DNA from: Ostreococcus lucimarinus
Lineage: Eukaryota
Length of the DNA: 64,000 nucleotides
Reading direction: 5' to 3' (one strand)
NCBI GenBank assembly: GCA_000092065.1
Contig: CP000587.1
Part shown: positions 3,792-58,809 of the stretch, one piece after another
How positions within the stretch are numbered: position 1 is the first letter of the stretch
Layout of the letters: the number at the start of each line of letters is the position of its first letter
Made by a program: the position numbers and the translations under genes
Notes under the pieces: model-generated
Seen by the model: only the letters and a program-made list of their open reading frames with translations
What the model was told of the DNA's origin: nothing
The model's database searches: none

Positions 3792-3822
<31 letters not shown>

Positions 3823-36614: not shown

Positions 36615-38594
36615 TCATCGCGAAAGGCTGTCGAGAACGCCGACCTCGGCCAGCGACAGGGGAGGATGAAAACTTCGTCTGTTCACGCGCACGTCTTCCA
36701 CGAAATCGTCCACAGTTTTGGACATCCGTTTGCGCGAATTCGCCGAGTCGAGCAATCGAATCATGACAACGGCAAAATCGCGGCTGTACGGCGGACCTGC
36801 GATCTCCAACACCTCGTTCGCAAAGTATCGAATCTGAGACGGATCCAACGTCCGACGCCACGAGTTCGCCGCAGCCGTGATCGTCGGCATCACGTGGCCA
36901 GCAGCGACGAGTTCGCAACCCAGGTCGAGGAGCGAAATAGCCAATTCGGCGCCGTGTGAACTTCCGCATGATTGAATGATCGCGTTCAGCGCCTCCAGCA
37001 CCACGCCTTGCAGCCCAATGTGCTTCTTCGCCACTTCCCCGAGGACGTGCACGAAAACAGAGTTGGCGTTCCCGACTTGAACGACCCGATGATACATTTC
37101 ATTCGTGAGCGCAGAGCGCGCGGCGGCGATGATACCTGCAGTCGCGCACGGGATAGCGAACACTTTATCGACACTCGTCTGCTCTGGCATCTCGCCCCGC
37201 TTCGCGTTTTCGACGATTGCCACGGCTTCAGTCAACGCCGCTTTTACTTCATCCACGCTCGTCTCGTCATCGCTTGCGGCTAAAGCGATCAGCTCGAAAC
37301 ACTCGCTGCGTAAACGATTCGCGCCCGAGTCAACTGTCCATTTAAAAGCTTCCGAAATGAGGTTGTAAAGGACGTCGGGGTGCCGAAGCGGCGCCACCGA
37401 CGGCTTCTTCTTGACGTCGCTCGACACGTACAAGTCGAGCAGCTTTTTCAAGTCCCCAGCCGCGAGTGCCCCACTGTCGCGTATTTGCCCAACCGATGAC
37501 GTGTTCGTGCCCACTGGACGCGAGCTGAGCAAATCAGCCGTGGCGTACTTGGCCGTAGCGTCAGCCGCGGACGCCGCGAGCCAAGGCGCCAGACGGCGAA
37601 CCGTTGCGGCACCGTGCAAGCTCGCTGCCGCCTCTTCAATCTCTTCCGACAATCGCGCCGCGATCGCCTGTGAACTCTTGGTCGTCGCCTTGTCCGTGTC
37701 TCGCCCTAAAGTCGCGAGCATGAGCTGGCCAAAGACGTACGTGCCTATGGACTGACAGCACATGCTCTTCAACCGCTCTTCAAAGTCCATTCGTCGCTCG
37801 TCGTCATCACCGGCTTCGATGATTCCCTTGACGTGATCGGCGAGAAGTTCGTGAAAGATGCTAAAATACGCCGCCGCCGCAGGTCCGAGCGCGCGCACTT
37901 CGTGTCGCATGCCGCGCTGCCACGCGTGCTGAATCGCGCACGAAATCAATAAACAGTTTGGATTACGCTCCGCCAAAGAAAACAACACCGCCCGCCCGCG
38001 CTCGCTCTTGAACAGCCCATCCAACCACGCCGGCGGTCGTCCCTGGAACACCGCGTCCGCCTTATTCGCGTCGAATTTCTCTCTCACGAGCGCCTCCAAA
38101 AAATACATTTCATCGAATCGCGCCTCCGTCTCCATCGTCGCCGCGCGCTCCCGCGGCGTCCCTTTCCCCGCTCCGCTGGTCAATATCCCTCCAGTCGGTG
38201 TTCTCGTCGCGTCACCGTCGCCATTATCGATGCCTCGCGTCTCTACCGCCGCGCTCACCTTGATCGGCGACGTGTTCGCGCCCCGTCTCGGCGGCGCCGT
38301 CACCTTCAACCAGTGCACCGCCAGCGTCGTCATCGCCGCGTACCCTCGGTAATTCTCGCTCAGCAGCTCTATCGCCGTGCTCGGCGCGCCTCCCGCGGAG
38401 ACGTACGCGCGCACGTCATCGATCGCGCTCGGTTCCATTATGAAATCTTTCTCCGCGAGTCGCGCTTCCAATTCCATCAGCCTCGACGTCTTCGTCTCGC
38501 CCAGCGCCGCGATCGCGCCGCTCTCTCCCGCGCGCGTCCCCTCGCCGTCGCTCGCCGTCGCGGTTCGCGTGCACACCTCGTCGTCGTCGGACAT
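36615..38594 (-). CDS. NELFCD: Negative elongation factor C/D (NELF-C/D, TH1-like) homolog
   Basis: [33 protein letters not shown] matches human [62 protein letters not shown] matches [57 protein letters not shown] matches IRYFVTEVLDVIAPPYTSDFVQLFLPIL. Confidence 0.8.
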   Translation of the reverse strand: [659 protein letters not shown]

Positions 38595-39302: not shown

Positions 39303-42300
39303 CTAATCTAAAATCGAAGACACGGTATCCTGCACTCCAATTCTCTTTGCGAGGATGTCACTGAACGCCTCGTTCCAGATGAGGACAGTCTGCATCGTCG
39401 CCACGGGAAGCAGCGACATGAAGAACAATATAGTAAAGATTATTAAACCGAAGAACTTGTCCATCTCTTTGTACCAGAAGTCTGAAAACCCTCGCGCTGC
39501 GGCCAAGCCGCGTCGCGCGCGGTACACAAATGGTTGCAACGCGCGACGCACACCGTTTCCTCGAGGTTCCGGTTCGCCATCCACTGTTTTCATCGGGAGC
39601 CAGCTTTCACCGAAAGTAATGATACTCTTGTCACTCACGAAGGAGCACGCCTCGATGAATATCGCCACGACGCACCAAGCGCCGAGCCCAGTCATGAACC
39701 ACGTGCGGAACAAGCTGTTGCTGCCGGTTTCGACGTGCAAAGCGAAAAAGTACAACCCATTCCAGACGAGGAAGAGTCCCAGACGTACCAGTCCGCGATA
39801 CACGCTAATTTTCCACAGTTTGTCGGGGAATTGTAACCACGCGTCGCGTGCGAATACCACTGAGTTCATCGCAGATGTGTACAAGAACACGACGAAGCCC
39901 ATTGCAATCGTCGCAGCGGCGATGCGACCCGAGTTCACGCTGAACTGTTCCATTTGCGTCAGCCCTGTGTATAGCGCGCTGCCGTGCAGAGAACCAATCA
40001 CAACAAGCAAGAGGATGACACGTCCGAAACTACTCATGAATAAGACGCCCGCTTTGTTGAATAAACCAATTCTGTTTCGATAGTTGGTGTTCATCGTCGA
40101 GTGCCACTCTTTCCAGGAACCATTCGCGATTTTGGGCTTGTCGAAAGTACCATCGAGCCAGTCTCGCCAATCGTTCCAGCTATTTCGCATCCAGTAAGTG
40201 TTCGTGCTTTGTGGCGAAAACCACCAGGGCGTTATGATGATGCAGATACCAAAGCTCCAAACCGACCAAGAGTACAGCAGTGATTTTGGAAGCACCGTGT
40301 TCGCGTGAAACAACAGTAAAAGAAGCAACACTTCCATACCAAAGTACAGGTGAGACTTGGCGTACAAGCCGTAAAGTACCACCATGTTCGCATTTTGTAG
40401 CACAAAACCCCGCTCGGTAGCGATATACTGCGCTTTACCGAAAAGGAGACCAACCATGTAATTGTAACCTTTCGTCGTCATGGCAAAAATGTTGAACGCC
40501 CACGAACCACGAACAAGTGACGAGGCGGTGTATTCGATACCATCGCGCAATCCTCTATCCATCACCATCTTCAAGAAGAGAGGTAGGACTGTTAGTAATC
40601 CTAGCTGGATCGCATAAATGGAGTTGTAATAACCACCTTCTTCTTTAGACAGCGACAGTGTTGTTTGTGTCTCTGTCATTTTGAAATAACGATAGACACG
40701 ATAGATTTCAAGATCTGCAATCGCGAGCCCGGCGTGCACTAGAATGTACAAATAAACACACCAAGCCGTCTGCATAACGCTAATGAAGAAGCCTGGGCCA
40801 CTAAAGTACATAGACATCATTCTGAAAAAGTCCATCGAGCGGTGTAGTCTGTAAACGTCACGAGACATTGAGATTGTCCCCGCAGAGCCTGAAATCTTTT
40901 GTTCGAAACCATTTACGGATGTAAAACCCATATCTCTTCCTTTACCCACCTCGATGAACTCTTCAAATAACACTCGGCCGCCACGAACGATCGCGTTCAC
41001 GCCACCGAAGAAATCCTCGGCGACGTGGATCATCTTTGAGGCCTTAGACACGCCACCATTTGTCATGGTGAATGCCTTGTCCCACACGTCGGGGTGACCG
41101 TAGTGGAAGCGCACCATGAGTGGCCACGTCATGAAACGTTGAAACGTTTGGAAAATGAACTCTGAAATCGCCGCGAACTGTGCGACGGCGCCCGTAGTCT
41201 CACTAAATATCACCTCAGGAAAGCCGACGAGGACAACGTCCTCAGAGAAAACATCGAGCAAGTTTCGCATCTTCAACGCCTCCGGGAAGTAGCCATCTTG
41301 ATTCATGTCCAGCGTTTGCAGGTAAGCACCTCTGCTGAAAATGACGGCGTGGTTTTGGTTTTCAGGTTTTCCTTCTCCAATTATTGGATTTCCTGGTAAT
41401 TCTACCTTGCACGCGAGAGATAACGTTCTATTTTCTCGATCGCATCCGACGAGACACGAAGCGAACGTGTCGTTTGTGTCAGACTTTGTCTGCACGAAGC
41501 ACACTCGAAGCTCTGGATGATTCAAGATGAGCTCGTTTATATCCTCCGCTTTCTGTCTATCAGCGGAACCTTGTGGAGCATTCAGCATATTTCCGTACAC
41601 TTGGCAAGACACGAGATATTCGAACTTGTCGCAGACCAATGTCTCAATCTCATCTTCGTCGTACCCTTCCGCTCGCGCAAGAAAGCGCAACGCTGCCCCA
41701 TAACTGCAGACACCACGCACGCAGCGACTGAGCGACTGCGTATGGTCGCTCGTCCAGATGCGGAGTTCTTCCCAGTACTTCTCAGTCACTGTGGCGTCGT
41801 CGCACGCCAAGGCCCCAACGCGCTCTTTGAAGTTTTCGTACTCATCTGGATACGTTGCTTGGATGATGGACAGCAGCGTCTTTTGATCTTCAAGAGGCTT
41901 TATCAATTCATCCTTCACGTAAGAAACCTCTTCAGCGTAATAAGGCGTGAACGCAGTCCACGCACGCATGTTACGCAACTTGGTGGGCATTTTCAGCGTC
42001 GCAAAGCTCAGAGAATTGGCAAAAAACATAAGTTGCCGACGAGCTTCGAGATTACGCGGCTCACCACCAGGATTGATGTTGTTCATTGAATTCAACAAAC
42101 AATCGACAATCTTCCGGTTGTTTACCAGCGTCGCGGAGGCGGACACTACTCGCACATGCTCAGTGTCACGCAGCGCATCGATGCGCACCATTTCAAGAAG
42201 TTGCGAATAAAGCTGCGACACACGATACTTTCTCTGATTGTTTGCGTTCGACCAACGACCATCGTTTTCCATGGCAAACGAACAGATCTTCCGAACCGCG

Positions 42301-45300
42301 AGAAGTATTTCGTGTAACGCTTCAGCGAGCGTGCTCGATTGCGCGTCGATATCTGCATCAGTTTGGATATTCGACCACTTGATGAGCTTTCGGCGACCTC
42401 TTCGCCAACGTTTACGAATGTTCGGTCGCTCTTCGCTTTCGTCCAGGAGAGCTCGTTGCTCTGCGCTCATTTCGTCCCAGTTTTCTTGAACGACGAAGCA
42501 TCCGCGCAACAGACCGCTCTTTTCCTTCATCTTTTTGCGTTTCTCTTTGGGAATAATACCGGTACAGCCAAATTTCATCTCGAGATTGATTGCCTCGACC
42601 ATTTGTTTCTGGCGATTTTTTTCCTTCTCGCGGATAGCCCTGAGTTGTCGCCGTTTTGTTCGTTGCTCCTTCCTCAATCGAGCTCTTTCGGCGCCGGCTG
42701 TATCGCCGAGAAGAAGGAGTTGCGCCTCTTCATCATCACTTTCAGTCTCTGAACCTTCAACATCTTGATCTTCATAATCTTCGATTATGGGAGTCGCATC
42801 AGTCGACGCACTCATCGCTTGCAACGTTAAGAGAAGCTTGATGATGGAGTCACGGAGTTGAATATAGCCACCGACGTCGTCGCGGCGACGTTGAGACATT
42901 TGCTCCCCCTCTATCGCGGCTAAGTCGGTTATGACCCGCATCAAAAGCGAAGAATCGCCGGGGGAGACGACTCGAAGCACTTCAGTCATCACCACACAAA
43001 GCAAATCCTTGGTTTGGATCAGCGTCGTGCCGAAAGAAGGGTACTGCGCCATTGTCCCAGTATTGAAGTTTGCCCTCGAGAAGACTGAAGAGGTGAGCAT
43101 CGGGGGCAGTATGATGTACTCCGGGGCGTCAAATATTTGCTCAATATCACGACCCTGGAGGAAAACAAACTTCAAGTCGGTACACTCCTTGTTTGTGATG
43201 TGGTCACGTGCGCGCAACGAATCGACAATCGAATTCCACCCACGCGAAAAGTGTTGCCATTTGACATCCATCGCCTCCGGTAAGAAGTCAGCTGGATTTG
43301 GAGCGGCGGTCTTTACACCAGACTCCATAAGGACCTCATCTTCTACAACGGTTAGCGCAACAGAATCAAGTAAACCTTCGTGAAGATCGCCGCCACCGTA
43401 GCCACCGCCCGAACGTATTCTTTGTTCTTTGGCACCAAATGCATCATCGTCGCTATCGCCGGAAGCGTTACCACTCGTGGTGGCATCGCCTGTCAAAATG
43501 ACTGGCTTTGGCCACGACTTATTCAAGACTTTTTCGCAGAATAGATTTGGAATCTGTTGAAAGTCTCTCAAAAAGTTCGCCCATCGTTGAGCGTGCGACA
43601 CTTTTCCTCTCCACTGAAGGAAAATTGTGAAGACTGATGCGTAGCACGTGTACCACAAAAACGTATCGCAAAAGTACGTCGCCACGGCTGGAAGCATCCG
43701 CGCGATTACCATGACAGTCATCAAAAATTGAGACGCGTGCACGTCGTAGTATGCTTCCGGTAATTGACCTTCAATTTCTTCACCAATATAACCGAGGGCT
43801 GGAAGGCTGAGCTTTTTGCCGCCGATTGCACTGCTCACGACATTCGACGCAGCGTCCACGATGTCAGATACCGTAGACTCCAACCTAGAATGTGGCATCG
43901 ATGAAGGACTAGCAGCAGCGCTACTCCATCCCCGATATTGACCGTTGTATGGATCAACGGAATAGTTCACGTCATAAGCGATCGAAAACTGACTTTCGTC
44001 TCCCCAAGATGCGCCAGTGAAATCGCCACCACCGGCGTGCGAAAATAGCAAACTTCTCCGGCGCTCGGGAATGGGCTCGTAGTAAGCGAGATTGATATCG
44101 CTTTCTTCGTAGTCGTCGTCGTCTTTTGTAAGCTCGGTAAAGTACGTGACTTTTGGCTTAAACTTCAACGCTTGGACGAGCGCATCGCCTTCGAGGTTGA
44201 TGCACGAAGTGTACTCATCGCTCTCTTTGTTCCAGCACAGATCCCCTTTCTTCAGCGCATTCACCGCCTCGCGCAGAGGAGTGATGAGGAGGAAGTGACC
44301 AAACGCAATCTTTGTGGAGAGCACGACGAGCCAGAAAAGAGTGTAAATAATGCGCTCGCGGACAGGCGTCGCCATTTGCGTCGGCGAGCCAACAAATGGC
44401 TGGCGCCGAACCATAGAGGACATCAGGCCACTGTTTGCGAGTGCGTACACCGCCGCCAAACCTTCAAAGTACTTCGTACTGTTATCGGCGCGAAGCGAAC
44501 GCTCCAGCACGTAAAACATTGGCACCGATATAAACATTCCAGCTCTTGTCGAGGTGACCATCCAGTCGCCAAAAGACTCTTGCGAAATGTTACGGAACCG
44601 GATTACCGCGACTTCCTGTCCAAACTTTAGCAACGCATGCGTCACCATCGACGTCGAGAGGTACGACCAATTCCAACCGTGCGCGAACACGTAAGCGGTC
44701 GATAAATGGAATGCGACGGCGTGGAACAAGATGATGGAATGAAAGTTGACGAACATGCTCAACCAACCTGAGGTTTCACGATGCGTTTTGAAAAAAACAT
44801 TGGTGAGAACGGCTGAGGAATCGCCTGAAGCCATCGCGCGCGACATGAATGAACGCAGGTGCTCGTACATTCTGGCATCTCTAGAAAGATTTTTCATGTT
44901 TCGAGGTACGCCAACGTAATCAGTTTCTTCTTCGCCGCGGTCGGGTTCTTCTTCCGGCGGGAGAAGTCGCACCAATCTGTCGTATTGCCAGAAAAATTCG
45001 TTGACATCGTCGTACATGACGCGCTCCGAAATGGGCGCAGAGGCACGATCAGAAATTTCTCGCTTTAAGAAGGTGTAAATCGGAGTGATCACGGTGCGAA
45101 GGAAATCCTTTTCACCGTAAGGCATGACGTCTGCGGATACGGGTTTGCACATGATGCGCTCTTCGCCTTCACCGGGAAGCCTATCGTCAAGCGTAAGTGA
45201 GCAAAGTGCCGCGTGAAAGATGAAACAGAGACATTCACTCATGTGGCGGAGATTGGCACATTCCCCGTATATCAAAAACCAAAGGCACAGGTGGTGAAGC

Positions 45301-48300
45301 TTTGCGTTCAATTCGACCGCGACGGATTGTTCGCGACTTGCACGCGTCCAGAGTTTGTTTGCGTCAGACATGTACACCGAAAGTAGCATTTCTCTAGAAT
45401 CCTGATCATCGTCACGAGCGATGCGTTTTGCGTGCGAAGCGACGGAGTCCACCATGCCAGTGTACGCGCCCCAGTTGTTGTAGTTCTGGAATAAATGCGC
45501 GTGAAGTTCGTGTACAACATCGTTCCAGTATCGATCCAAGTAATCGGTTGAGTAACTCGATACATCTTCTTTTTGTGTGAGCAATTGCTCAAGCCAGACG
45601 GATAAACTGTCAACGCTGTTTGCGAGGTTTGACGGGACGTCGACTTCCTCATTCGTGAATGTAGAGTCCTTCGCGCTCTTCTGGAAACCGAACATATCCG
45701 CGAGGTGTGAAGCAATAGGCTCGATCCTACGTTTGATTTCGGTGACTCTCTCGTTTTTGTTGGCCGTCATGTCACCCACTGATGTCAAATCTTCCTTCAT
45801 ATCCGGGATGGTGCTCGGCATCGGTCTAGCATAGCGAACAGGCGTCGATTTCAGGCCGAGGACCTTCCGGATGAAAACTCTGGACGACAGAAACCAAGTT
45901 TTTACCGAACGCGACGTCATCGCCCGATTGATTGTCGTCACCAAAGTGCGGCGGCGCATTTCGACGCCTAGCACAGATGCATATGCTCTGTTGAACAACA
46001 TCTTTGCGTGAACGTAAGAAATTGGCACGAGGGACAGCAGAGCGAGGCAAATATGCAGAGCCAATCCGATCACCTCATCCACATCTCGGAAGAAAAAGTC
46101 ACTGAAGATGCGCATCGTTCGAGCTATGTGCTTGAACATAGGCAGTGGAATATCGGAGATCAGTGAGGATATATGAACGACACAGTGCACCGTGCAGAAT
46201 GCCGCCAAGGCGAAAACGATTTTGTTCTGGCGCTGTTCAGTATCGAGCGTTTCGCTGAATAAACGTCCGCAGAGCTTCATGTGGAACACAACCAAAAAGA
46301 CTCGGACGCACATATTGTACATCAAGATGACGCTGCGTTTACCGACCTCGCTGGATGTGAGACCCAGTCTTTCCCCGATTGCGATTACGCGCTGCGGCCA
46401 GAAGAACGACGGCGACGTACTCATGAAATAGACTCCGGTGAGCAACAATCCGGCGATACCTGCAGTGACAACGACGACGCCTCGTACAGCCGGAATCCCG
46501 TCGAAATCGCTCACACGGACTGCCGCCGTACTACACACCATAAGGATGAGTGGGACAGGGAGAATGCGGAACGTGATGTACTCCATCTTGAGATGTCTCG
46601 GCATGGCGCGTAGTGACTTCATACGCTTGGCCTGCCACATCCACCAAGTGCCATCTTGATTGACTGCTCCTTGATTGCCAAGTTTAAAGGGATCAAGCCA
46701 GAATAGCCAAGAAGTGAAGTTTATCGCGGGGATACCCTCCTTGAAACTCTGTGGATGAAAGAACCAAGGTGAAAACATCCAAAGAATGACGGCGATCCAT
46801 ACATGCCAAGTTGTCGTCACAAAGACGTACCCTGCGCTGAACGTAGATAGTTCTGTGAGCAGAAGAGTCATCGCTAAAGTCGACATCGATGGAATGATGT
46901 GTGAAACCGCGTACTGCATGTAAAGGTCGGAAAAAGAGGCGTTCATACTCATACTGCGTTTGGTACCGCGGTACGACGCTTCGCCAGAGGCGATCGAAGC
47001 ATCGATAGCAGAGCCTCTCGATTTGGCGATGAACATGTGGTACACAAACGATCCCGTAACGATCCCGTGATAGGTATCTTTGACCATCTTTACTAAACCA
47101 CCGGTGATCCAACCGTGCAACATACCAGGCCAGGCCATCACCAAGCTCGCTTGAAGCATCCATTGCGATGGATACAGTGTTTCAAGGCCAATTTCTTGGT
47201 GGAAACCGACGTTATCGAAGGCATCGCCAGTTGTGTAATACGTTTCAATGCTAAACATTGCGATCACTGTCTTACACAAGACAAAGGCGGCCATGGATGT
47301 AAACAGCATGAATTCTGTGTAGAATAACCCAACCGACGACTGGAAAAAGCTCAAGCAGCGGAAAATGTCCATGCTCTTTGAAAGTCTATGAAAGTCACGC
47401 GAGATAAGCTGCATACCGTTCCCAGTAGCGATTTTTTTATTGAATTGGTTGTTACCATCGAATGAAACTTCTCGTCCCTTGCCACAGGTGGTAAAGTTCA
47501 CGTACTCGATTTTGCCACCCCGTTGCACGACATTCATACCTCCGTACACGTCCTCTGACAAGTGCAGTCTTCGAGAAGCCTTAGAGACTCCACCACTTGA
47601 GCGGATGAATGCACCATCCCATATGTCAGGGTGGCCGTAGTGCATGCGGACACGAAGAGGGTTCGTCATGAAACGCTGCAACAAAGTCCCAAAGACCGCC
47701 TCAGAAGTGGCCGCAAAACTCGACACTGACCCCTGACGCCCAGAAATCAGTTGTTCGGTAAAGCCGATGAGCACTATGTCTTCGTCGGATCCATACAACC
47801 TCAGAACGTTACGAAGTTTTAACCCTTCTGCGAGATGTGCATCTTGGTTCATATCAATCGTTTGCACATACATGCCACGCGACCAGACCAATCCCATGTT
47901 TTGGTTTTCGGGCTTGCCTTCGCCAACAATTGGATGCCCAGGAAGTTGAACACGATGCGTTCGCTTGAACTTTCCGTCTGCGCCGCGACTGAGCTTTGCA
48001 ATTGCGAAGTTATCATTGTCGCCACTCGGTTGTTCGACATAATTTACCGTGACATGCGGGAATTGTTCCACGAGCGCCTCCACTTCACCGTTCATCGTAT
48101 ATCCCGGTGAGTTGTAGACTTGGCAACACAGGACGTGCTCGAACTTTGCACGAACCAATGGTTCAATCTCATCTTCAGGGACGCCTTCCAGACGTGCCAA
48201 TAATCGTAGGGCATCGATGTAAGAGGCAAAGCCTCTCACCGTACGATATAAAGTTTGACCTTCGCCGCTCGCCCAGTTCATGGTTTCTTCACTCAGACGT

Positions 48301-51300
48301 TTTTCCTCATCGGTGAATGTGGACAAAGCAGTGATCTTGTCCAACATCGCGCGATCAAAAAAGTGCTCGTAGTTTGAGTCTTTCACCTTCACACCAGTGC
48401 GCTCGATCATGTTTTCCCACGAAGACGGTGCCATGCTGACCATGAAGCGAAATCCCGTGACGGATTCGCCATCGATTGTTGATGTCAACGTGTCCAACGA
48501 AGTGCGAATTTCTTCGGTGTAAACCGGAGTTAGCGTCGTCAGCATCGGCATCTGACGAACAGTCATTGGTTTCTTCATTGCAGGATCGCCGAGGCTTGAC
48601 ACGAAAAATCGAAAGATGTCTTTCGCTTCGTCCAAAGAAGGTTCGGCCGCGGGGTTCGCCGTAGAGAGCATCAGATCCATTTGTTTGATGACGTACGATC
48701 CAGCCTTGGAGGACGCCGCACTTCGAATTTTGGCTGATGACGAATCGAGAGCATTAAAATCCATGATTTGCTGAAGCTTCTCGCACGTTTTAACCAAGAG
48801 TACGTTCGTTTCTTTGTGCGTTGCGCGCTCATTCTCGCGGTCCTTTGCGATCTCAGTGCTGATGAGTTTGAGCAAATTTTCCATCTGCGAGCGAATTCGA
48901 CTGGTATCAAACGCACTTTCGTCATCTTCACGAACTCGCAACAGCTTCAATAGTCCCGCCGATTGCTCGCGCAGCGACCCGAGCCATTTTATCGCATGGG
49001 AATGCTCACTCAAGCTCAGCGACATGAGGTCAACGAGAGACTTGAGCAATTCTACAAACTGCACACGGTCTCTGGCGTCGACAACTCCGAGGACACAGGT
49101 AGCGATGAAAGCGAGCAAGTCAATCGATTGCGCAATCACGGATGACGAAAACGCAAACCGCATCTTTTCATTGCGCTGAACGCCAATTCCACTAAACAAA
49201 GAGCCACTGAGCATGATAGGGAAAACGACGTACCGAGAGCCGAAGAAGCTCTCGCTCGTGGGTCCATCCAGGATACGGAACAAAAGAAGATCGGTCTCTT
49301 CGTTACTCAAGAGGTCTCTTGAGCGCGTCGACTTCACGATCTCGTTCCATGCTTTCGCGAAAGAGAACCAGGCATCCGAAACGCTTTCTGAACACAATGC
49401 TGTTGAAGAGTCCGAAGGTGGTTCCGGCTTGGGAGAAGACGTCAAAACTTTTTCCGCAAATAAATCCACGTTTTGCGGCATATCAAGAACTGTGCGTGCC
49501 CACCCGCTGGCAATACCTGTGTTCTTGTAGCGCTTGTATGCGCTAGCGACGCCAAGCGTCGTGATGAAGTAGAAGAACGTGTTACCAAAGTACAGCAATA
49601 CACTCGGCATCCATCGCTCGAATAACATGAGCGCCTTGAATCCATATCGTCTCGCCAAACGAGTCATTTCGATTAGCTGTGGAGAGAGGAGCTCGTTATA
49701 GTCGTACGCATCACAGTCAGCCCCTGCGAAGTTATAATTCCAGCAGTACAGATCGAGTTCCAGAATCGCTTTCGTTGGTGCGATGAGGGGGTTGACCATC
49801 AAAATATAATCGAGGGTCAACTTCAACGTAAAGGTGACGACCCAGAAGATGATATACGACCGTCGGTCTTTGCTTGATATGGGATTGTTCACCTTCTCTG
49901 TGAAATATCTGTCCGTTTTGTCACCGGAAGTGAGTTGGTAGCCAGAGATATTGGCCAAAACCAGCACAGCGTAGGGGAAACCGACTGCAGCAAACGTCTT
50001 CACATTGATGAAGTCAGTGGCACAAGCCATCCCGAGTAGCAGAACTACTATAGCGAAAGCGGCGCGTCCGACTGATTCTACTCGACTATGGAACAACGCA
50101 ATTCGGTCGAAGAAAATGACTCTCGACTCGATGATCAGGTCAAATACGGCTGCCGTCAGCGCCGTCGTCGAGTACATTGCCGGTTCTGCAAATTTCACAA
50201 ATGCGTGCACAATCATAACGTGCATCATCAACGACAGGAGCGCGAAAATGCGATGGAAGTTGACATACATCGTCATCCAACCCAAATGCTCTCTGTAAGT
50301 TTTTCTGAAAACAACGCTCAAACTCTGATCTTTCTCCTTAGCGGCTCCCGCAGTGCGCACAAAATGCCTGAATTTAGCATACGAGCTTGTGCCCATCTCA
50401 GCGTCTATGTTCAGCATACGCTTCAACTTTGAGACATCAATAAATGTTTCATTCATATCATCGTAACCCATGCGAAGATGCAAAGGAGCAGCACTTTTCA
50501 TGTGCAATGCGAGGAAATTGTATAGCGGTCTCACAATTGAGGTGAGAAAATCATCCGCTTCAAAAGCCAAACCGGAGTCGGGTACAGCCGAACACATGGT
50601 GCCTCGGTTCACGACAGCCGCCGCCATGATGTGAAATACAAACATCATAAACTCTGGCATAAACCTCAAATTGGCAGACTCTTGGTAAATGAGCTCGAAC
50701 AGTACAAGCTGGCATAGCTTCGCATCAGTGCTTCCCTTCAACATCGAAGACGCCAGCGTCTCAGTTCCACGCGGAGAAAAATCTATGCCAGTGTAACTCA
50801 TGTATCGCTTATAACTCGCAAACGTTTTCTGATGAAGAGCCTGCGCGGCCCAGTCTGATTTGTTCGAGCTCGGCGCGTCTTGGAGTTGAGACGTGTTCCA
50901 AAGAAGCATCGCGCACTTATCGATGCAGCTTTCTCGTATGCTTGCGACGCCTTCGCTACCGTTTTGGAATCCAAATAAATCACCGAGACTTTGCGCGATG
51001 GGCGCAAGCCTAGTTTTCCACTGCTCAATATCACGCTCGATGGAGCTTGCTCCCGATGGCTCCGGGCCAAGACGAGTGAGAGAATCTTCTTCGAATTCGA
51101 CAGGTGGAGATTCTTTGCTGAGTTCACCGACGAGTTGCCGAGACGCTTTGGAAGGCGTACCCAACGCGCGTACAGCTCGTTTCTGGATATCCGCCGTCGC
51201 GCGATCGTCCGCAATAAACAGTCGAACGATCAAGAAATTCGATCGAGAAAGAGAGACTAATGCATCTCGCACGTATCGACGCGTTATACGCCAACGAATG

Positions 51301-53765
51301 GCGAGAGCAACGCCCAAGTACAAGATGATCGCTAGGTATACCACCGTCAAGAGTTCAACCTCAAGTTTTAAGGCATCGACGGATTCGCGGTCGGGGCAAC
51401 TCGTGTCCCCAGGTTGCTCAAATCGCTCTTTTTGATCTTCTATGTACGTCTCCAACTCTGTAAATATTGTCGGCGGCTCCGGACACGCTCTGTTATTTTT
51501 GCGATGAATCTGTCGCATGTGGTGACAGGTCAAAAAAGTGCTTTGCAATGCTGTCGAAACCGGGTTGATCAACCCCTTTGGATGCGTCAAGATTGCACTA
51601 AAGTTCTCGAAGTGCGCATAAATCGGTGTCGGCTCGTTCGGATTGAGCTTGATTCCGTGGAATGCCTCCGCCTCGGCGCGCATGAACAAGTGCATCGTCC
51701 TGTTGTGATAACTTTTCATAAATTTCGAGCAGTCTGGATACATGTCGATATTGTAGGCTGGCTGATTATCTTGTCCGTGGAATATAGTACAGCTCCCCCC
51801 GTCCTTCCAAAGCAGCTTCAGCATGTAATAAGCAGCTCTTGGTCGCAGTAGGTCCACTTTGTTTATGCTACACTTCTTCTTCACCGCCATCACTCCGAAC
51901 CACTCCTCGGACACATACAAGTCAGGCTGCGTCGGGGACATGTATCCACACGGAGAATGTAAATATTCTTTCAGCGATGGGCATACTCGCGTGATCGTTG
52001 GAATGCGCTCGTCGTTGGTTGGCACAGGAGTCACTGCTTTGCCTTTCCAGTATTCGTCGACCCAAGCCATGATGGCCCCCCCGGACGTAAATCTAACTCC
52101 GCAACCCGATTTGCACGCCGTGGAGTGTCGCTCTATATCTTCTACCATCGTAGAGAGCCAATCTGCCTGTGAAACCTCATCCTCGGTCCCCATCGTGTCG
52201 TACCCGTTGAGACCATCCAGTTCTGGATTGAGGCTAAAGGCATCAACCCCATACTCCGTAATCAAAAACGGACGTTTGCTCACCAGATGGTATCGCTGAA
52301 ACAGTCCCATTGGAGAAAAGTAACGCCGCGTGTACAAGTTAACGCCCCAAAAGTCGATTTGATCCATGTACCGATCGGCTAACTTTATCCAACTCAAAGC
52401 TCCCCACAGCTGGCGTCCCACCAGATGCTGCTTAGTCTTTGGCAAATTTACGTTCGCTATGGCTGTGCCGCAGAGCATGTTTTCTGATCGGACCATCCCG
52501 CAGAGCATGTTGATCGACTTCATCAGCTTTTCGATCGAATCGTCAAACTGACATCCGCCTACCCCAAAGTTTTCGGCCAAATCGCTATCACACACGTACA
52601 AATTCCACGGGCCGTTCAACTCGTTGCCGACAATCCAACCGACCACGGCCGGATGCTTCGCCGATCGTACAAGTTTGCGTAGTTCAGCTTGCGTATTCTC
52701 CATCGTCTCTGCGGTGTTAAAGAAGCTTTTCGTACCGTCTTCAAAGTCATAGCCGACGAGAATTGATATGTTGTACTGGTGCGCCAAATCAAAGAATTGC
52801 CTATGCCGCTTGGAAAACTTCAACGTGTAGATGCGCATCGTGTTCACGCCCGCAGCGGCCATGAGAGGTATGTCGCGCTCAAATATACCCGCGTAGTCAT
52901 TCGTAAAAAAGTCACCATACGGCTCAAACCAATCTGGGTCCCATCCGACCGGCACGGGGGAGTAACACACCGCGCGCATCAACCATGGTTTGCCGTCGAG
53001 GTACAGGGTACGCCCGAGCCGACGCATTCGACCGGTGTCCCATGTCGTGTTCAACATCGGCGGGTTTAAAAATCTCTTCACCAGCTCTCGTCCCGACCGC
53101 TTGCCGTGCTCGTACTCATCGTCGACAAACGCGGGATCGTAAATCGCCTCGTCCGTCAACGCCAAGCCCGGCTGTACCGTCCCCGCTCTGTTCATTTCGC
53201 TTTGCTTCGAATAAGACGACGAGCGCGATTCACCTTCCGCTACGTCTCTGTTCGCGCGCCCACCGCGTGTGGTCTGCCCTAATGCCGGAAGCGGCCGCGC
53301 CTCGCGCGTCCCCGCCGCCGTCTTCTCCGCCGCCGTCCTCGGTCTCGCCTCGTTAAAGTCCCACACCGATCCCGACAGCCGTTCATTCAGGGCGTCTAAG
53401 TCGACCGTCCCGCTCGTCTCGCTCGCGCTTCGCGCCCCATCGATCGTCCTCGCGCGCTCAAACGTCCGCGCTCCTTCGTCCGCCGCGTCAACACCCTCTC
53501 GGAGGCGGAGCGACTCGCCGCCCGTCGTTCCACCTTCCGTCGCCCCCATCATCGCGTCCGACGCCACCGACCGCGCGCCCGCGTCCCCCCGTCGCGCGAC
53601 GACGGCCAAGACCACTCCCACGACGCCCACGAGCGCCGCGAACGCGCGTCGATGATCGACCCACGCGCCCCGTCCTCGTCCTCGTCGCGATTCTCCCGCC
53701 TCTCTCCCTCGCGTCGCGCCATCGCGCCGCGCGCCGAGCATCGGCGTTCTCTCCGCCGCGCTCAT
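39303..53765 (-). CDS. Giant 4,820-aa single-exon protein: signal-anchor, clan GH-A glycoside hydrolase / transglycosylase domain, then two tandem complete FKS/callose-synthase-type (GT48) 1,3-beta-glucan synthase units
   Basis: The GH domain (plus 53000-51600) has VGNELNGPW (acid/base NE) and FLITEYGVD (nucleophile TEYG). Unit 1 has FKS domain-1 [15 protein letters not shown] and catalytic [39 protein letters not shown]...[32 protein letters not shown]. Unit 2 has [15 protein letters not shown] and [38 protein letters not shown]...[32 protein letters not shown]. Each unit has multi-TM blocks. Uninterrupted 14,463-nt ORF with ATG at 53765-53763. Confidence 0.95.
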   Translation of the reverse strand: [4820 protein letters not shown]

Positions 53766-53989: not shown

Positions 53990-55930
53990 ATGGCGACGGC
54001 GGCCGCGCGCGCCGATGCGGACGCGCGCGACGCGCGCGACGCGCGCGCGTCGACGCGCGACGGCGAGACGACGACGACGCGCGAGGACCGCGCGAAAAGG
54101 GGCGCGACGCGACGACGACGCGAGGCGCTGCTTGGCATGGTGTTGGCGTGCGTCGTCGCTCGCTTCGCGCGCGTCGGCGCGGACGACGGCGCGGAATCGA
54201 GCGAGAGCGGTGGAGGCGGCGTCGCGGAAGCGGCGCTTGGGATCGAGCGCGACGCGCGGTGGGGCGCGGCGCGCGGGATGGCGAGTTTGAACGCGAAGCG
54301 AGTGCACTTTCGATCGGAGGGCGAGCGGGCGGCGCTCGGGGCGGCGCCGGACGGCGCGAAAGACGCGAGCGATGGTTTCGAGATGACGATGACGGAGTTT
54401 GAGCATTACATGCGATTGCACGGGAAGAGTAAGCAGACGTACTGCAGTCGAAGGGAGGGGGGGGCGGCGCAAGACGTGCGCGCGTGCGAGGCGACGTTGA
54501 GTCGCGCCGAGGCGAGTTTCCGACGTAATCAGAGGATCGTGGCGCAACATAACGCCGATCCGTCGAATACGTTCAAGTTGCGGCTTAACAAATTCGCGGA
54601 TGTGGACTCGGAAGATTTTCAGGCATCGCAGCTCAGGTATAGCGCGCGTCCGATGTCCAAGTTGCGCTCGCACCATCAAAACGCCAAGCGCTTTGCGCGT
54701 CACTTCGCGAGCGGAATGTTGGGGCAATCGGACGTCGATCGAACGGAGTTTCCAAAGCGTTTCAATTGGAAAGACGTTCCCAACGTCATGGGCCGCGTGC
54801 ATAATCAAAAGCAAGACTGCGCCTCTTGCTGGGCGTACGTGACGACCGATATTCTCGAGTCGCTCATGGTGATTAGAAAGGTCACGCCCGTGCACGAGGA
54901 ACTGGCAGTGGACGAACTCATCAACTGCGACACGTATGACAGTGGATGTGCCACGGGGAACATGTTTACCGCTTTCGAGTGGATCGAGACAAAAGGCGGC
55001 ATCGCGACGAATAAGAATTTCAATGGCCTTCTCGACGGCATCAGCAAGAAGCCTGAGTCGTGGTTTTCGAAAGTTCAGGCGCACGCGGGACCCATCGGCT
55101 ATGCGAACGATGACTTAGCGCCCGAGTTTTCAACGAGGCCCGAACCTCACTTTGAATCGGCGCTGAAGGTTGAACCGGGCGTGACGCTGGAGAAGGTGCA
55201 AGAACAAATGTGCATGGCCAGCGAGAAACCCGACTGGCCGCGGGTAGCGCAAGTGCACGGCTACTGCGAGCTTTCTCTGAGTGGAGGCGAGAAAGAGCTC
55301 ATGCATGCGTTGTCTAAATCACCGGTTGCGATCGGGGTCAACGCCAACAAGAAGTTTCAGTTGTACGACAGAGGTATTTTGCGCTTGAAGGATTGTCCTC
55401 CAGCGCCGCATACGTCAGAGACCATGTACACGGCCATCAACCACGCCGCTTTACTCACGGGCTGGGGCGAAGAAAAGATGCCTAACGGTGAAGTTGTCAA
55501 GTACTGGGAGGTGAAGAATAGTTTTGGCTCGGACTGGGGTGAAGGTGGTTACTTTCGCGTCGAACGCGGACCCGTGACGGCGGAAGGGCTTGGAACTTGC
55601 GGTATGTATTTCGAGAGCGTTTACCCGATCGTCGACGAGAAAGAGGCGCGCGCGCAAGAGTGCGTTCCGGGTGCGACGTTTCGCAGGGATTACTATCGCG
55701 CTCTTATGGGCGGGGCGGCGCAGCAAGGACGTTCGTTCATGCAGTTTTTCGATTCGAACGACGACGCCATGGCGGTCCGCCTTGCCCTTCTTGTCGCCGC
55801 GGGATTTGTGATGACTGTGACGCTCGTGACTCGCGTTACGAGGATGGTGAAGCGTACGTGCGCACCACAAGAAGGGCGTGCACCGCTGCTCGATTCGAAT
55901 GGCGCTCGCCGCGGGTCCGACTTGGTATAG
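53990..55930 (+). CDS. Cathepsin L-like papain-family (C1A) cysteine protease: signal peptide, I29 propeptide, and C-terminal transmembrane anchor
   Basis: The ERFNIN-like propeptide is EASFRRNQRIVAQHNAD. The catalytic Cys is QDCASCWAY, the His is NHAALLTGWG, and the Asn/Trp is NSFGSDWGEGGYFRVERG. The C-terminal TM segment is AVRLALLVAAGFVMTVTLVT plus a short tail. Confidence 0.9.
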   Translation: MATAAARADADARDARDARASTRDGETTTTREDRAKRGATRRRREALLGMVLACVVARFARVGADDGAESSESGGGGVAEAALGIERDARWGAARGMASLNAKRVHFRSEGERAALGAAPDGAKDASDGFEMTMTEFEHYMRLHGKSKQTYCSRREGGAAQDVRACEATLSRAEASFRRNQRIVAQHNADPSNTFKLRLNKFADVDSEDFQASQLRYSARPMSKLRSHHQNAKRFARHFASGMLGQSDVDRTEFPKRFNWKDVPNVMGRVHNQKQDCASCWAYVTTDILESLMVIRKVTPVHEELAVDELINCDTYDSGCATGNMFTAFEWIETKGGIATNKNFNGLLDGISKKPESWFSKVQAHAGPIGYANDDLAPEFSTRPEPHFESALKVEPGVTLEKVQEQMCMASEKPDWPRVAQVHGYCELSLSGGEKELMHALSKSPVAIGVNANKKFQLYDRGILRLKDCPPAPHTSETMYTAINHAALLTGWGEEKMPNGEVVKYWEVKNSFGSDWGEGGYFRVERGPVTAEGLGTCGMYFESVYPIVDEKEARAQECVPGATFRRDYYRALMGGAAQQGRSFMQFFDSNDDAMAVRLALLVAAGFVMTVTLVTRVTRMVKRTCAPQEGRAPLLDSNGARRGSDLV

Positions 55931-56069
55931 CGCCGCTCGCGAGGATTGAGGATTAGATAGGCTGTAATTCATCGACACTTGTCGTCGTCGTCTTGTTTTA
56001 CATGTCGTTTGCGGGATATTGAAAGATTACTTGTAGCAGCTGCGAGAATAATAGTTGCGAGTGTGCGGA

Positions 56070-56942
56070 TCAAGTCGAGTCTTCATCGAAGCTGTCTTGA
56101 TCCAACGTGCAGTCCTCCGTAAAACAGGTGCCGGTTTCTTCTTCGACTGCTTTTGTTGCTAGTTTCCCGACGTACCCGGCGCTAAAGATCGCCAAACCGA
56201 CGCCAAAGAGAGTTGATAAGACGGCACTTCCACCTAGCGCGCCCTCGGCGACCTGTCTCGTGGCCGTGCCCGCGGATACGTACGCAAACGTTCCAGGCAT
56301 CATTCCGAAAAAGGAACCGACGACGTAAGACCTGAACTTCACCGACGTCAAGCCGTAGAGATAGTTGCTCAGAGCGAACGGCATCAGCGGTGAAAGACGC
56401 ATGATGGCGACGACGCGCAAACTGTCCTCTCCGATCGCCTTATCGATCGCCTTGAACTTGGGATATTTTTCCGCCAGGCTCATCACCTTGTCGCGCGCGA
56501 CGTATCTGGAAATCAAAAAAGCGATAGCCGCCGCGATCGTCGCCGCCGTCGTCACGAGCAACGTGCCCGAGTACGTGCCGAACAACGCTCCAGCGGACAT
56601 GGTGAGCGGAAACGCCGGCACCGCCAAGACTTCCAGCGCGACGTATCCCATCAAAAACAACGCGTACCCCGTCGGCCCGAGCGACTCGATGTAATCCGTA
56701 AACGCACCCAGCGAGGCGAACAGCTCATCCTTGTACGTCAACCCCGCCGCCGCGAGCAAGACGACGACCATCGCGGCCAAAACGTACCCAAAGTTATTCC
56801 TCTTGCCCTCCTCGCTCGCCGCCGCCGCGCTCTCCGCGCCCTCGCTCGTCTCCGCGAGCAGACTCGCCAGCTCCACGTCATCCATCTCCGTCTGCACCGC
56901 GTCCGCGGCGAACCACCGTCGTCCATCTCCCGCGCCTTTCAT
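56070..56942 (-). CDS. TVP38/TMEM64 (DedA / SNARE-associated Golgi protein) family membrane protein
   Basis: YALFLMGYVALEVLAVPAFPLTMSAGALFG...RLSPLMPFALSNYLYGLTSVKFRSYVVGSFFGMMPGTFAYV is the DedA/TVP38 core. The start is taken as MKGAG (+-3 nt). The upstream Arg-rich part of the track ORF is probably not coding. Confidence 0.75.
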   Translation of the reverse strand: MKGAGDGRRWFAADAVQTEMDDVELASLLAETSEGAESAAAASEEGKRNNFGYVLAAMVVVLLAAAGLTYKDELFASLGAFTDYIESLGPTGYALFLMGYVALEVLAVPAFPLTMSAGALFGTYSGTLLVTTAATIAAAIAFLISRYVARDKVMSLAEKYPKFKAIDKAIGEDSLRVVAIMRLSPLMPFALSNYLYGLTSVKFRSYVVGSFFGMMPGTFAYVSAGTATRQVAEGALGGSAVLSTLFGVGLAIFSAGYVGKLATKAVEEETGTCFTEDCTLDQDSFDEDST

Positions 56943-57579
56943 CGCCCGCACCCACGCGACGTCGCGCCTCCTTCCCGCGCGCGTCGCCGCGTCTCCGTTC
57001 GCGCGTCGTCCCCGCGCGCGTCCCGTCTCCCGCCTCCCCAGCGTCCCCGTTCGCATCCGCGCGCGCACGACCGTCGTCGTCGCCATCGCCATCGCTCGCG
57101 TCGTCGCGCGCGTCGTCACCGCGTCCGCGTCTCGTCCGTTCGCGCGCCGTCCGTCGCGCGTCGCTCGCGTCGTCCGTCGTCCGTCGTGGATAAGCGCTCG
57201 CGCGCGCGCGCCTTCGCGTATCCCGTCGCGTCGTCGCCGCGCGCGCGACTCGACGGCGCGCGCGCGCGGTTCGCGTCGATCGGCGCTCGCGTCGAGGCGC
57301 TCACCGTCGGCGTCGCGCGTCGCGCGGTGGCGCCGACGTCGGCGTCGACGCGAATCCGCGGTCGCGACGTCGACGGGATGTCGCGCGTTCGAGGCGCGTT
57401 TAGCGCCATGTAAGTCATATATGCGTTGTTTTATGTACTCGGACATTCGGGTCAGGTATTTCAGTGATACTGCTTTTAGTACGTGAAAAGACGCCCACCG
57501 TCGGCGACGCGCGACGCCGACGGCGCGCGAGAGCGGCGCGCGCGCGACGCGTCGAGGCGGTCGACGCGACGACGCGTCG

Positions 57580-58692
57580 ATGTCCGCGCGCGCGGCGCGA
57601 TGCGCGGTGGCGGTGGTGGGGATATTCGTCGCGTTCAGTTACTTTGCGCTCGCGCAGGAGGACGTGTACAAGAAGCGATACGGCGGCGCGCGGTTCGCGG
57701 CGACGTTCTTCGTGCTCGCGTGCGAGCGGTTGGTGAACGTGATGGTGGCCGCGATCGGGCTGGGCGCGTGCGGGGGCTCGGGGGCGCGATTGGCGCGAGG
57801 GGAGATTTTCCAGAGCGGGGCGTCGCAGACGCTCGCGATGGCGGCGAGTAACGAGGCGCTGCGGTACGTGTCGTACCCGACGCAAGTGCTCGGGAAGTCG
57901 TGTAAGATGGTGCCCGTGATGGTTGGGGGGATGGTGCTCGGTGGGCGCACGTTCACGGCGTCGCAGTACGCGCAGGTGGTTTTCGTGACGCTGGGCGTGG
58001 CGATTTTCAATTTCGGCGCCGACACGAAGAAGACGAGCGGAAACGATAGCGCGTACGGGTTGTCGCTCATCGCGATTTCGCTCGTCATGGATGCCGTAAC
58101 GGGTGGGTTGCAAGATCGCGTCAAGCGCACGACGAAGGCGTTGAATCCGCGAGCCGGTGCGAGCGCGAAGCCGAGCGTGTACGAGAGCATGTTGTACACA
58201 AATTTGAGCGGTTTCGTCGTCGCCTTGGGCTTTGCTTTCGCCACTGGACAGCTCACGAGTGGCGTGCGGTCGTGCGTGGCGCACGTTGCGCTCGCGAGAG
58301 CCGTTCTCGTGTACTCTCTCGCCAGCGCTGTCGGACAGGTGTTCATTTATTACACGATTACGCACTTCGACGTCCTCGTGCTCACCACGGTGACGACGAC
58401 TCGAAAAATCTTCTCCACCGTCATCTCCGTCTTCCGTGACCCTAGCAACGCGCTCAACCGAATCCAATGGTTCGGTTGCTCATTGGTCTTTACATTCCTT
58501 GCCCTGGACGTCGTCGCCGCTGCGTTTCGTCCGCGCCATTCCGCGCCCGCGGCGGCGACAGCCGCTCGCCGGGCGCCGTCTTCTCGTCGCGCCGAGCGCG
58601 ATACCGATACCGATCGCGCGGCGGCGGCGATCGGATCCGCGCGATCGACATCATCCCGTCGTCGTCATTCGTCTCGCAGATCCTCGTCGTGA
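57580..58692 (+). CDS. SLC35B: SLC35B-type (UAA family) nucleotide-sugar / PAPS transporter
   Basis: Ten hydrophobic segments. GASQTLAMAASNEALRYVSYPTQVLGKSCKMVPVMVGGMVLGGRTFTASQYAQVVFVTLGVAIFNF matches the SLC35B/UAA family core. ATG at 57580. Confidence 0.75.
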   Translation: MSARAARCAVAVVGIFVAFSYFALAQEDVYKKRYGGARFAATFFVLACERLVNVMVAAIGLGACGGSGARLARGEIFQSGASQTLAMAASNEALRYVSYPTQVLGKSCKMVPVMVGGMVLGGRTFTASQYAQVVFVTLGVAIFNFGADTKKTSGNDSAYGLSLIAISLVMDAVTGGLQDRVKRTTKALNPRAGASAKPSVYESMLYTNLSGFVVALGFAFATGQLTSGVRSCVAHVALARAVLVYSLASAVGQVFIYYTITHFDVLVLTTVTTTRKIFSTVISVFRDPSNALNRIQWFGCSLVFTFLALDVVAAAFRPRHSAPAAATAARRAPSSRRAERDTDTDRAAAAIGSARSTSSRRRHSSRRSSS

Positions 58693-58809
58693 GTGCGCCG
58701 GACGCAACACGAGTGATGTAATAAACTTATTCACCGCGCGTCGAAGGCCCCTCGCAGTGGTGTAACACCATCCCTGCTGATCATCACCATCATTGAACGA
58801 CGCGCCGTC

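Follow-up and report, generated by a model that had tools for sequence, protein, structure and literature searches.

Fungal glucan synthases of glycosyltransferase family 48 (GT48), represented by Fks1 and Fks2 (PDB 7xe4, 8jzn and 9wzv), combine an FKS1_dom1 domain with a cytosolic GT-A domain placed between two transmembrane (TM) blocks; Fks1 consists of one such unit, 1,876 amino acids (aa) long. Land-plant callose synthases (CalS/GSL) are built from the same Pfam families. Among the glycoside hydrolases (GH), family GH72 includes the fungal glucanosyltransferases Gas, Gel and Phr, and Gas proteins carry a glycosylphosphatidylinositol anchor. A diatom has been reported to carry genes annotated as GH72, and a GH72-like domain beyond fungi is therefore not new as such. 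In Schizosaccharomyces pombe, the GT48 synthase Bgs3 is obligately paired with Ghs2, a GH16 protein anchored by a TM segment, and the two are proposed to produce branched glucan (PMC13612389). A survey of algal carbohydrate-active enzymes concluded that prasinophyte genomes lack GT48 (PMC3797821). Here we describe a minus-strand gene that joins a GH domain to two complete GT48 units in one reading frame, found in a 64,000-nucleotide stretch of Ostreococcus lucimarinus contig CP000587.1 (assembly GCA_000092065.1), hereafter the window. The gene corrects that survey, as prasinophytes do have GT48, in an unusual form. We consider it probable that this is a single-exon nuclear gene encoding one polytopic membrane protein, which would act as a self-contained beta-1,3-glucan assembly unit.

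The literature that we searched, with most subscription journals outside its coverage, holds no description of a tandem GT48 or of a GH-GT48 fusion. Gene calls with such an architecture are already present in public data, unremarked (P0421 and P0272, see below). The architecture is solid and conserved, and it comes as a surprise in an alga without a wall; its enzyme families are familiar ones, and the function set out below is a proposal.

One reading frame conserved across both junctions

The first-pass annotation of the window had proposed a single long minus-strand open reading frame (ORF) without introns. This is borne out, since the ORF runs uninterrupted over 4,820 codons with no internal stop codon. 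Judged from stop-codon frequency, a stop-free run of this length at 51% GC cannot be attained by chance. A spurious ORF of GC-rich DNA is ruled out, as the gene is the lowest-GC stretch of the window and real domains are matched along its length. From the N-terminus, the product consists of an anchor, a GH barrel, a Cys-rich region, a second TM segment (TM2), GT48 unit 1, a basic linker and GT48 unit 2 (Table 1).

Two long relatives, P0272 (2,723 aa) and P0421 (5,253 aa), were found by a representative search and cluster look-up. P0421, a JGI metagenome gene call named '1,3-beta-glucan synthase', is colinear with the window protein from the GH barrel to the final residue, with a global identity of 54% (identities by region in Table 1). 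In addition, the junction between units 1 and 2 was scanned against metagenome contigs, which yielded six loci (L008-L013), all of them open through the entire ~6.9 kb retrieved. Two of these loci, L011 and L012, share 94.8% DNA identity without any indel, with 206 synonymous versus 120 nonsynonymous codon differences. The linker itself (aa 2591-2670, 80 codons) carries 5 synonymous versus 3 nonsynonymous differences in the 95% relative, similar to the flanking domains. L013 (Ga0222715_10000785:11983-18882; GC 49%) has 66% protein identity and a junction open over 6.9 kb, and by its appearance comes from another genus, perhaps Bathycoccus (identity unconfirmed).

A Micromonas-like locus, L001, lies on a 422-kb contig (GC 64%) next to the same Peptidase_C1 and VTT genes that adjoin the Ostreococcus gene. 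Colinearity with the window protein extends over aa 163-3659, and a single frame is kept over aa 485-3232; both junctions of L001 are 40-42% identical with few gaps. Its unit 1 groups with a cluster holding Micromonas commoda XP_002500049.1, and orthologues across genera are 54-66% identical. At the level of aligned sequence, these comparisons show that Ostreococcus, haptophytes and the Bathycoccus-like and Micromonas-like genomes all preserve the layout and keep both junctions coding. The GH-GT48-GT48 architecture, which the first-pass annotation had suggested seeking in related genomes, is thus found there, and in haptophytes too.

The M. commoda record is a 365-aa 'glycosyltransferase family 48 protein, partial' in the cluster of P0189, which matches unit 1; the reference annotation of the GT48 locus is probably truncated in that species.

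No exact match to the 4,820-aa product, or to ten N-terminally shorter versions of it, was present in the protein collection, and any public model of the locus must therefore differ from the full ORF. Together with the P. parvum (see below) and M. commoda annotations, which split or truncate the locus, this is what could be cited for internal promoters or starts, or proteolysis, giving separate GH, GT48-1 and GT48-2 polypeptides. We regard that as highly improbable, given 14.5 kb without a stop, linkers conserved as protein in one frame in L001 and in the 95% relative, six of six metagenome loci open across the junction, and the single gene call P0421. The split annotations omit homologous coding sequence, pointing to annotation error, and the P. 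parvum and M. commoda records should be read with this warning in mind. Post-translational cleavage of the product would still be compatible with the conserved junctions.

Two complete GT48 units

Both of the complete GT48 modules proposed earlier were recovered separately by Pfam. The whole-protein scan returned two Glucan_synthase (PF02364) and two FKS1_dom1 (PF14288) stretches, and each unit scanned alone matched both families with the scores listed in Table 1, the gathering cutoffs being 37.2 bits for PF02364 and 27 bits for PF14288. The sequence motifs quoted in the first-pass annotation are all in place: ANLRFMPEFMMFVFH at aa 1031 and ANLRHMSECLCFIFH at aa 2837, GEGKPENQN at 1948 and 4130, DMNQD at 1971 and 4153, HYGHPD at 2042 and 4221, and GGVSKAS at 2058 and 4237. 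The two units share 28% identity over 1,082 aligned residues (E 1e-117) and can be aligned from the N-terminal 'PIA..L...FGFQ' motif through the last TM helix. As to whether they are paralogues or of different origin, they proved to be paralogues within one clade.

The active site of Fks1 includes E851, D1080, K1082, D1102, N1104, E1155, K1172, E1173 and H1195, and further E1221, D1222, K1246 and R1248, plus K1261 in IF2 (PMC10499315). Alignment of Fks1 with units 1 and 2 revealed that all of these residues are conserved in both units save two, D1080 being replaced by Glu and K1172 by Ser in both. The resulting GEGK at the D1080/K1082 motif is also the consensus of a 121-sequence, mostly plant, GT48 alignment. 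This conservation suggests that both units are active synthases. An AlphaFold2 model limited to unit 2 (aa 3850-4820) and built on the 121-sequence alignment (pLDDT 79, pTM 0.80) matches the cryo-EM structures of Fks1 and Fks2 in Foldseek (9wzv, Fks1, E 5e-27, TM-score 0.66). GT48 membership is thus indicated for each unit by PF02364, FKS1_dom1 and the Fks1 active site, and for unit 2 by an Fks1-like fold as well.

The window protein shares with Fks1 and Fks2 the FKS1_dom1, the cytosolic GT-A domain between two TM blocks and the active-site residues. However, its identity to Fks1 is only ~20%, and two units are fused head to tail here behind a putatively exoplasmic GH domain. The land-plant enzymes have motifs identical to GEGKPENQN...DMNQD...HYGHPD and a core identity of 30-37%, whereas PF25968, found on many of the plant matches, is not reported for the window protein.

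The two units differ in their degree of conservation. Unit 1 is identical at 96 of the 110 near-invariant GT48 positions, defined as columns at least 97% conserved in the 121-sequence alignment. Among its replacements, Asp stands for Arg at 1716, GKGRD has become GKGRE, Asn stands for Glu at 2090 and 2109, and Ser for Glu at 2295. P0421 shares the GKGRE replacement, and unit 1 is therefore specialised rather than decaying. A rival reading is that only unit 2 polymerises beta-1,3-glucan and that unit 1 has been sub- or neofunctionalised, as a pseudo-synthase with a regulatory or scaffold role, as a primer-former, or for another linkage or acceptor. The long branch and faster evolution of unit 1, the loss of 14 of the 110 near-invariant positions, some of them charged (the equivalent of R3910 is D), and an RE substitution shared with P0421 and hence a fixed specialisation all fit this reading. 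We nevertheless consider it unlikely: unit 1 retains the mapped catalytic, donor-binding and acceptor-binding residues of Fks1, is of full length with both TM blocks, FKS1_dom1 and 441.7 bits to PF02364, and is conserved as a clade across Mamiellophyceae with 100% support.

A GH72-like clan GH-A domain

The TIM-barrel motifs noted in the first-pass annotation are in place, with VGNELNGPW at aa 379 and ITEYG at aa 502. The acid/base residue is E382 (codon 52620-52622) in GNELNG, and the nucleophile is E504 (codon 52254-52256) in TEYG. The N-E pair (aa 381-382) and E504 are nearly invariant across the alignment of the GH family, consistent with a clan GH-A barrel carrying an NE-motif acid/base Glu and a nucleophile Glu. 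No other part of the protein is as well conserved as the barrel. No further Pfam domain was found in the N-terminal part at E 0.01, and hence no recognised carbohydrate-binding module.

Pfam GH72 (PF03198) is the best match of the domain, yet it stays below threshold (16.3-20.9 bits versus a cutoff of 25.9) and covers profile positions 55-146 only. Among 23 aligned homologues, 21 match Pfam GH72 (best E 4.9e-13) and 20 match the GH2 TIM barrel model. Comparison of the family profile with solved structures ranks the GH72 protein Gas2 first (E 4.4e-10), then GH158, then GH2. The Gas2 alignment passes through its AGNEV acid/base motif, in which E176 is mutated in PDB 2w61. A fold search with the AlphaFold2 model of the GH domain (barrel pLDDT 70-95, overall 63.5) places GH157 first with GH72, GH2, GH5 and GH158 close behind, so that the top structural neighbours include three families acting on beta-1,3-glucan (GH157, GH72 and GH158). 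The earlier label 'GH72/GH5-like' therefore holds in part. The profile comparison favours GH72, but the Pfam threshold is missed, and in the fold searches GH72 does not stand out from GH157, GH158, GH2 or GH5. By sequence, the domain is a retaining clan GH-A enzyme closest to GH72, for which 'GH72-like clan GH-A' is an apt label; its surroundings are rich in beta-1,3-glucan-acting enzymes, and GH72 membership as such is not demonstrable. The fungal GH72 proteins (PDB 2w62 and 8pe1) differ from it, as the domain here is tethered by TM helices to a synthase, falls under the Pfam GH72 threshold and has GH157, GH158 and GH2 scoring equally in structure.

The GH domain could also be a plain endo- or exo-beta-1,3-glucanase that releases, size-limits or recycles the polymer, for example in abscission at division. 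We hold this to be rather unlikely, though not negligible. The best profile match is the transglycosylase Gas2, most of the family members match Pfam GH72 as given above, and the nucleophile motif (T/S)EYG resembles SEYG, which we take to be that of GH72; in addition, hydrolysis and transfer are not decidable from sequence.

Contig_34191 of ERZ28548078 (L002; GC 69.5%) carries two successive GH72-like segments (7842-9186 and 10064-11623), which precede FKS1_dom1 and a GT48 core on one strand. Frame changes suggest introns in this locus, which stops before a second GT48 could appear.

Membrane topology

TM segments were assigned from Kyte-Doolittle hydropathy, and those after the GT domain of unit 2 from hydropathy together with a DSSP helix list. 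The N-terminal signal-anchor and the multi-TM blocks around both GT domains, which had been proposed before, were recovered in this way (Table 1). The P0421 orthologue likewise begins with a hydrophobic segment. The charge distribution suggests a cytosolic N-terminus, an extracytosolic GH domain, and a cytosolic location for the N-domains and GT domains of both GT48 units. The GH domain lies between TM1 and TM2, ahead of the N-domain of unit 1, and its exoplasmic side is suggested by the Cys content as well as by charge. TM2 would then bring the chain back to the cytosol. The stretch measured for the inter-unit linker (aa 2591-2680) contains 19 Lys and Arg versus 7 Asp and Glu residues. About ten hydrophobic helices follow the GT domain of unit 2 in hydropathy and in the AlphaFold2 model, and by this helix count, taken from hydropathy and the DSSP list, the C-terminus would be cytosolic. 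With a cytosolic C-terminus, a head-to-tail fusion of GT48 units would need no additional TM helix.

Table 1. Features of the fusion gene and of its predicted product
Feature	Residues (aa)	Position in window	Strand	Identity to P0421	Remarks
Whole gene		39303..53765	(-)		4,820 codons plus stop; introns not required; predicted product 544 kDa
Arg-rich N-terminal tail	1-38	53652..53765	(-)		9 Lys + Arg; predicted cytosolic (positive-inside rule)
TM1, signal anchor or signal peptide	39-57	53595..53651	(-)		Kyte-Doolittle peak 2.05
Low-complexity GC-rich spacer	58-225	53091..53594	(-)		Not conserved in P0421
GH barrel	226-570	52056..53090	(-)	75%	Clan GH-A (beta/alpha)8, GH72-like
Cys-rich region after barrel	571-800	51366..52055	(-)	70%	3.5% Cys; predicted extracytosolic
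TM2	805-823	51297..51353	(-)		Kyte-Doolittle 2.66; followed by RWRITRR; kept in one frame in L001
GT48 unit 1	890-2600	45966..51098	(-)		N-domain, TM block, GT domain, TM block
FKS1_dom1 of unit 1	1016-1117	50415..50720	(-)		PF14288, 58.5 bits
Glucan_synthase core of unit 1	1712-2366	46668..48632	(-)	48%	PF02364, 441.7 bits
Basic inter-unit linker	2601-2670	45756..45965	(-)	42%	Without hydrophobic segment
GT48 unit 2	2671-4820	39306..45755	(-)		More conserved unit
FKS1_dom1 of unit 2	2822-2933	44967..45302	(-)		PF14288, 84.3 bits
Stretch before unit 2 GT core	3401-3850	42216..43565	(-)		Called insert by position only
Glucan_synthase core of unit 2	3903-4559	40089..42059	(-)	69%	PF02364, 463.5 bits

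The stretch before the GT core of unit 2 contains acidic and K/E/R-rich low-complexity runs, such as EKEKNRQKQ and KEKRKKMKEK, and its first 240 residues are 47% identical to P0421.

Haptophyte relatives and phylogeny

Once its orthologues are set aside, the core of unit 2 is closest to the haptophytes Chrysochromulina tobinii and Prymnesium parvum (39-51% identity), and is 35-39% identical to plants and stramenopiles. In P. parvum (GCA_041296205.1), locus L005 (CM083859.1) presents a GH-like segment followed by two GT48 units on one strand, annotated as three genes of 595, 1,205 and 1,655 aa. The paralogous locus L004 (CM083876.1) has two tandem GT48 units, and its ORF 6011-8386 takes in the final TM helix of unit A, at 6059-6343, as well as the unit B N-domain, at 6803-7795, indicating that the units are fused there too and that the annotation is fragmented. 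A TARA scaffold (L006; GC 64%) is colinear with GH-GT48-GT48 at 23-46% identity, and the 2,723-aa gene call P0272 on it spans the unit junction. The haptophyte loci of P. parvum and L006 are thus similar to the Ostreococcus gene in order and in the use of one strand, with the junction in one ORF in L004 and L006. They differ from it in having introns or frame breaks and in being annotated as two to three genes, and P. parvum differs further in having two such loci.

In the P. parvum annotation (L004 6011-9634 and L005 14350-15240), the tandem loci are split into two to three models, which omit homologous coding sequence for the final TM helix of unit A and for unit B in its N-terminal half. 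An environmental GT48 fragment of the haptophyte-like clade, P0095, carries EF-hand domains (PF13405, PF13499, PF13202 and PF00036) beside Glucan_synthase, which hints at calcium regulation in some relatives.

A tree of GT48 cores was built from a MAFFT alignment of 633 columns by neighbour-joining (NJ) on Kimura distances with 200 bootstraps; it took in no chlorophyte GT48, and unit 1 forms a long branch in it. With 100% bootstrap, the tandem-type units stand apart from the GT48 of plants, stramenopiles and oomycetes, in a clade comprising Mamiellophyceae units 1 and 2, the haptophyte units and related environmental sequences. Consequently the green-alga gene does not group with streptophyte CalS and is not an orthologue of plant callose synthase. 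Unit A of L006 groups with unit A of P. parvum L004, and unit B with unit B, each with 100% support; the duplication is therefore older than the split of these two. Neither the NJ tree nor region-by-region tblastn gave a clear pairing of the Mamiellophyceae units with haptophyte A or B, and pairing is clear only for L006 with P. parvum L004 and for Ostreococcus with the Micromonas-like locus. The first-pass annotation described plant, fungal and stramenopile synthases as single units. This is true of most database matches, whereas tandem units are the rule in the haptophyte and Mamiellophyceae clade, and the window gene is accordingly not a one-off.

GC composition and origin of the gene

The gene has a GC content of 0.509 and a third-position GC content (GC3) of 0.59, compared with GC 0.56-0.67 and GC3 0.67-0.76 in most neighbouring genes. 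An ABCF gene of the same window (61360-63957) has GC 0.528 and GC3 0.62. Mean GC is 60.0% over the window, ~60-69% in the flanks and 0.53-0.67 in the neighbouring genes as a whole. The gene had been called a 50% GC island within flanks of 65-75%. Its own value (50.9%) agrees with this, but the contrast was overstated, and the island is real but modest. The orthologue at L001 has a GC3 of 0.79-0.82, equal to its neighbours (0.74-0.85), and its lower total GC comes solely from codon positions 1 and 2, which reflects membrane-protein composition. The dip in GC3 is therefore specific to Ostreococcus and gives no sign of recent transfer.

Horizontal acquisition might take the form of a recent foreign insertion or of an ancient transfer of the whole fusion between the haptophyte and Mamiellophyceae lineages. 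Taken together, acquisition is a possibility that we put somewhat below even. The low GC and GC3, the grouping of both units with haptophyte GT48 and apart from plant callose synthases (100% bootstrap), and the GH-GT48-GT48 order in P. parvum are consistent with it. Recent acquisition is opposed by the synteny with the Micromonas-like genome (Peptidase_C1 and VTT), by the GC3 of the L001 orthologue, by the similar GC3 of the ABCF gene and by the divergence of orthologues at 54-66% identity across genera. A recent foreign island is ruled out by the synteny and the orthologue GC3. As for ancient transfer, ancient paralogy with differential loss also fits, and the tree is an NJ tree with the sampling and the long branch described above. 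An ancient haptophyte-Mamiellophyceae transfer is plausible, as is ancient paralogy with later loss.

Proposed function

Based on the domains and the predicted topology, we propose a scheme for the fusion protein. As in Fks1, each GT48 unit would use UDP-glucose at the cytosolic face, and the beta-1,3-glucan chain that it makes would be extruded through a TM channel of its own. The head-to-tail fusion would be topologically feasible, as a GT48 unit is predicted to begin and end in the cytosol. The tethered GH domain would sit on the exoplasmic face near both exit pores, where it might cut and re-join nascent chains (transglycosylating, branching or cross-linking them) or trim them. In this wall-less alga the product would be a minor polymer, whose synthesis probably coincides with cell division, rather than a glucan stored in bulk. 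The earlier proposal that polymerisation of two chains could be coupled with transglycosylation or branching is a reasonable hypothesis.

The scheme can be compared with the Bgs3-Ghs2 pair, in which a GT48 synthase likewise works with a TM-anchored exoplasmic GH near the extrusion pore, proposed to branch nascent beta-1,3-glucan (PMC13612389). That pair consists of two proteins held non-covalently and uses a GH16 domain, whereas here the GH domain is covalently joined to GT48, belongs to clan GH-A and comes with two synthases in one polypeptide. By analogy, the window gene would be a covalent version of Bgs3-Ghs2, and it bears on the idea, drawn from fission yeast, of physical pairs of synthase and remodeller. 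The fold search also listed PDB 9utw, whose title, 'Structure of dimeric FKS1 in complex with tRNA', suggests as a lead that GT48 units can pair.

Evidence from O. tauri, which is genetically engineerable, bears on the role of the product. A KOG0916 (glucan/callose synthase) gene of this species belongs to a mitotic expression cluster together with the gamma-tubulin complex, an NDR kinase and an annexin, and the authors tied callose synthase to Golgi-derived secretion at division (PMC2850359). Laminarin was undetectable in O. tauri cultures, with alpha-glucan accounting for the glucose (PMC9134812), and a storage role is therefore disfavoured. It is a puzzle that a wall-less, starch-storing cell keeps a 14.5-kb gene under purifying selection, and we take this to mean that the glucan product is probably tied to cell division.

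Several points weigh against the proposed assembly unit. The GH72 score is below threshold, and neither specificity nor hydrolase or transglycosylase mode can be read from the sequence. The number of TM helices, and hence the side of the C-terminus, depends on hydropathy and the DSSP list. With its replacements and faster evolution, unit 1 may differ in activity. The O. tauri KOG0916 gene is no more than a candidate orthologue of the window gene. In addition, no report of beta-1,3-glucan in Ostreococcus was found in the literature examined.

Haptophytes store beta-glucan, and they are the closest relatives of the gene outside Mamiellophyceae. In Phaeodactylum, GT48 is the chrysolaminarin synthase (PMC7965971). 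The window gene might accordingly encode a storage-glucan (chrysolaminarin-type) synthase at the vacuolar membrane, as proposed for diatom GT48. For Ostreococcus we judge this very unlikely, because laminarin was undetectable in O. tauri and because the KOG0916 gene of that species is expressed together with genes for mitosis and secretion. A bulk storage-glucan synthase in Ostreococcus is ruled out on the published laminarin assays (PMC9134812). The storage-glucan reading may apply to the haptophyte copies.

An extended form of the assembly-unit proposal is an autonomous machine, spread by one gene transfer between haptophytes and prasinophytes, in which two pores extrude two chains and the GH72-like domain joins or branches them (beta-1,3/1,6) into a finished branched or multi-stranded glucan. 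We offer it as a speculation with the odds well against it. If true, the Mamiellophyceae and haptophyte clade would achieve with a single polypeptide what in fungi takes separate Fks, Gas and GH16 proteins, and one haptophyte tandem gene would be the unidentified synthase-plus-branching enzyme for storage glucan. Mamiellophyceae and haptophytes are among the most abundant eukaryotic phytoplankton of the sea. Beta-1,3-glucan, as laminarin, is a major marine carbon pool (PMC7104365).

Gene neighbourhood

The neighbour at 36615-38594 is a TH1/NELF-D gene identical to XP_001418887.1 of O. lucimarinus CCE9901. The other neighbours in the window are ordinary eukaryotic genes, encoding FtsZ, ABC transporters, two C1 peptidases and a VTT-domain protein. 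The two C1 peptidase paralogues lie on either side of the VTT gene (53990-60510). Peptidase_C1 and VTT genes adjoin the giant gene both in O. lucimarinus and on the Micromonas-like contig (L001 5377-8013), and this neighbourhood is a case of synteny conserved across genera.

The GC-rich window is full of long overlapping ORFs on both strands (such as 576-2459/1148-2333, 31019-32813 and 53906-55084/53990-55930), and mechanical ORF lists overcall here. The FtsZ ORF, for example, is 851 aa long, but its Tubulin domain begins only at residue 476.

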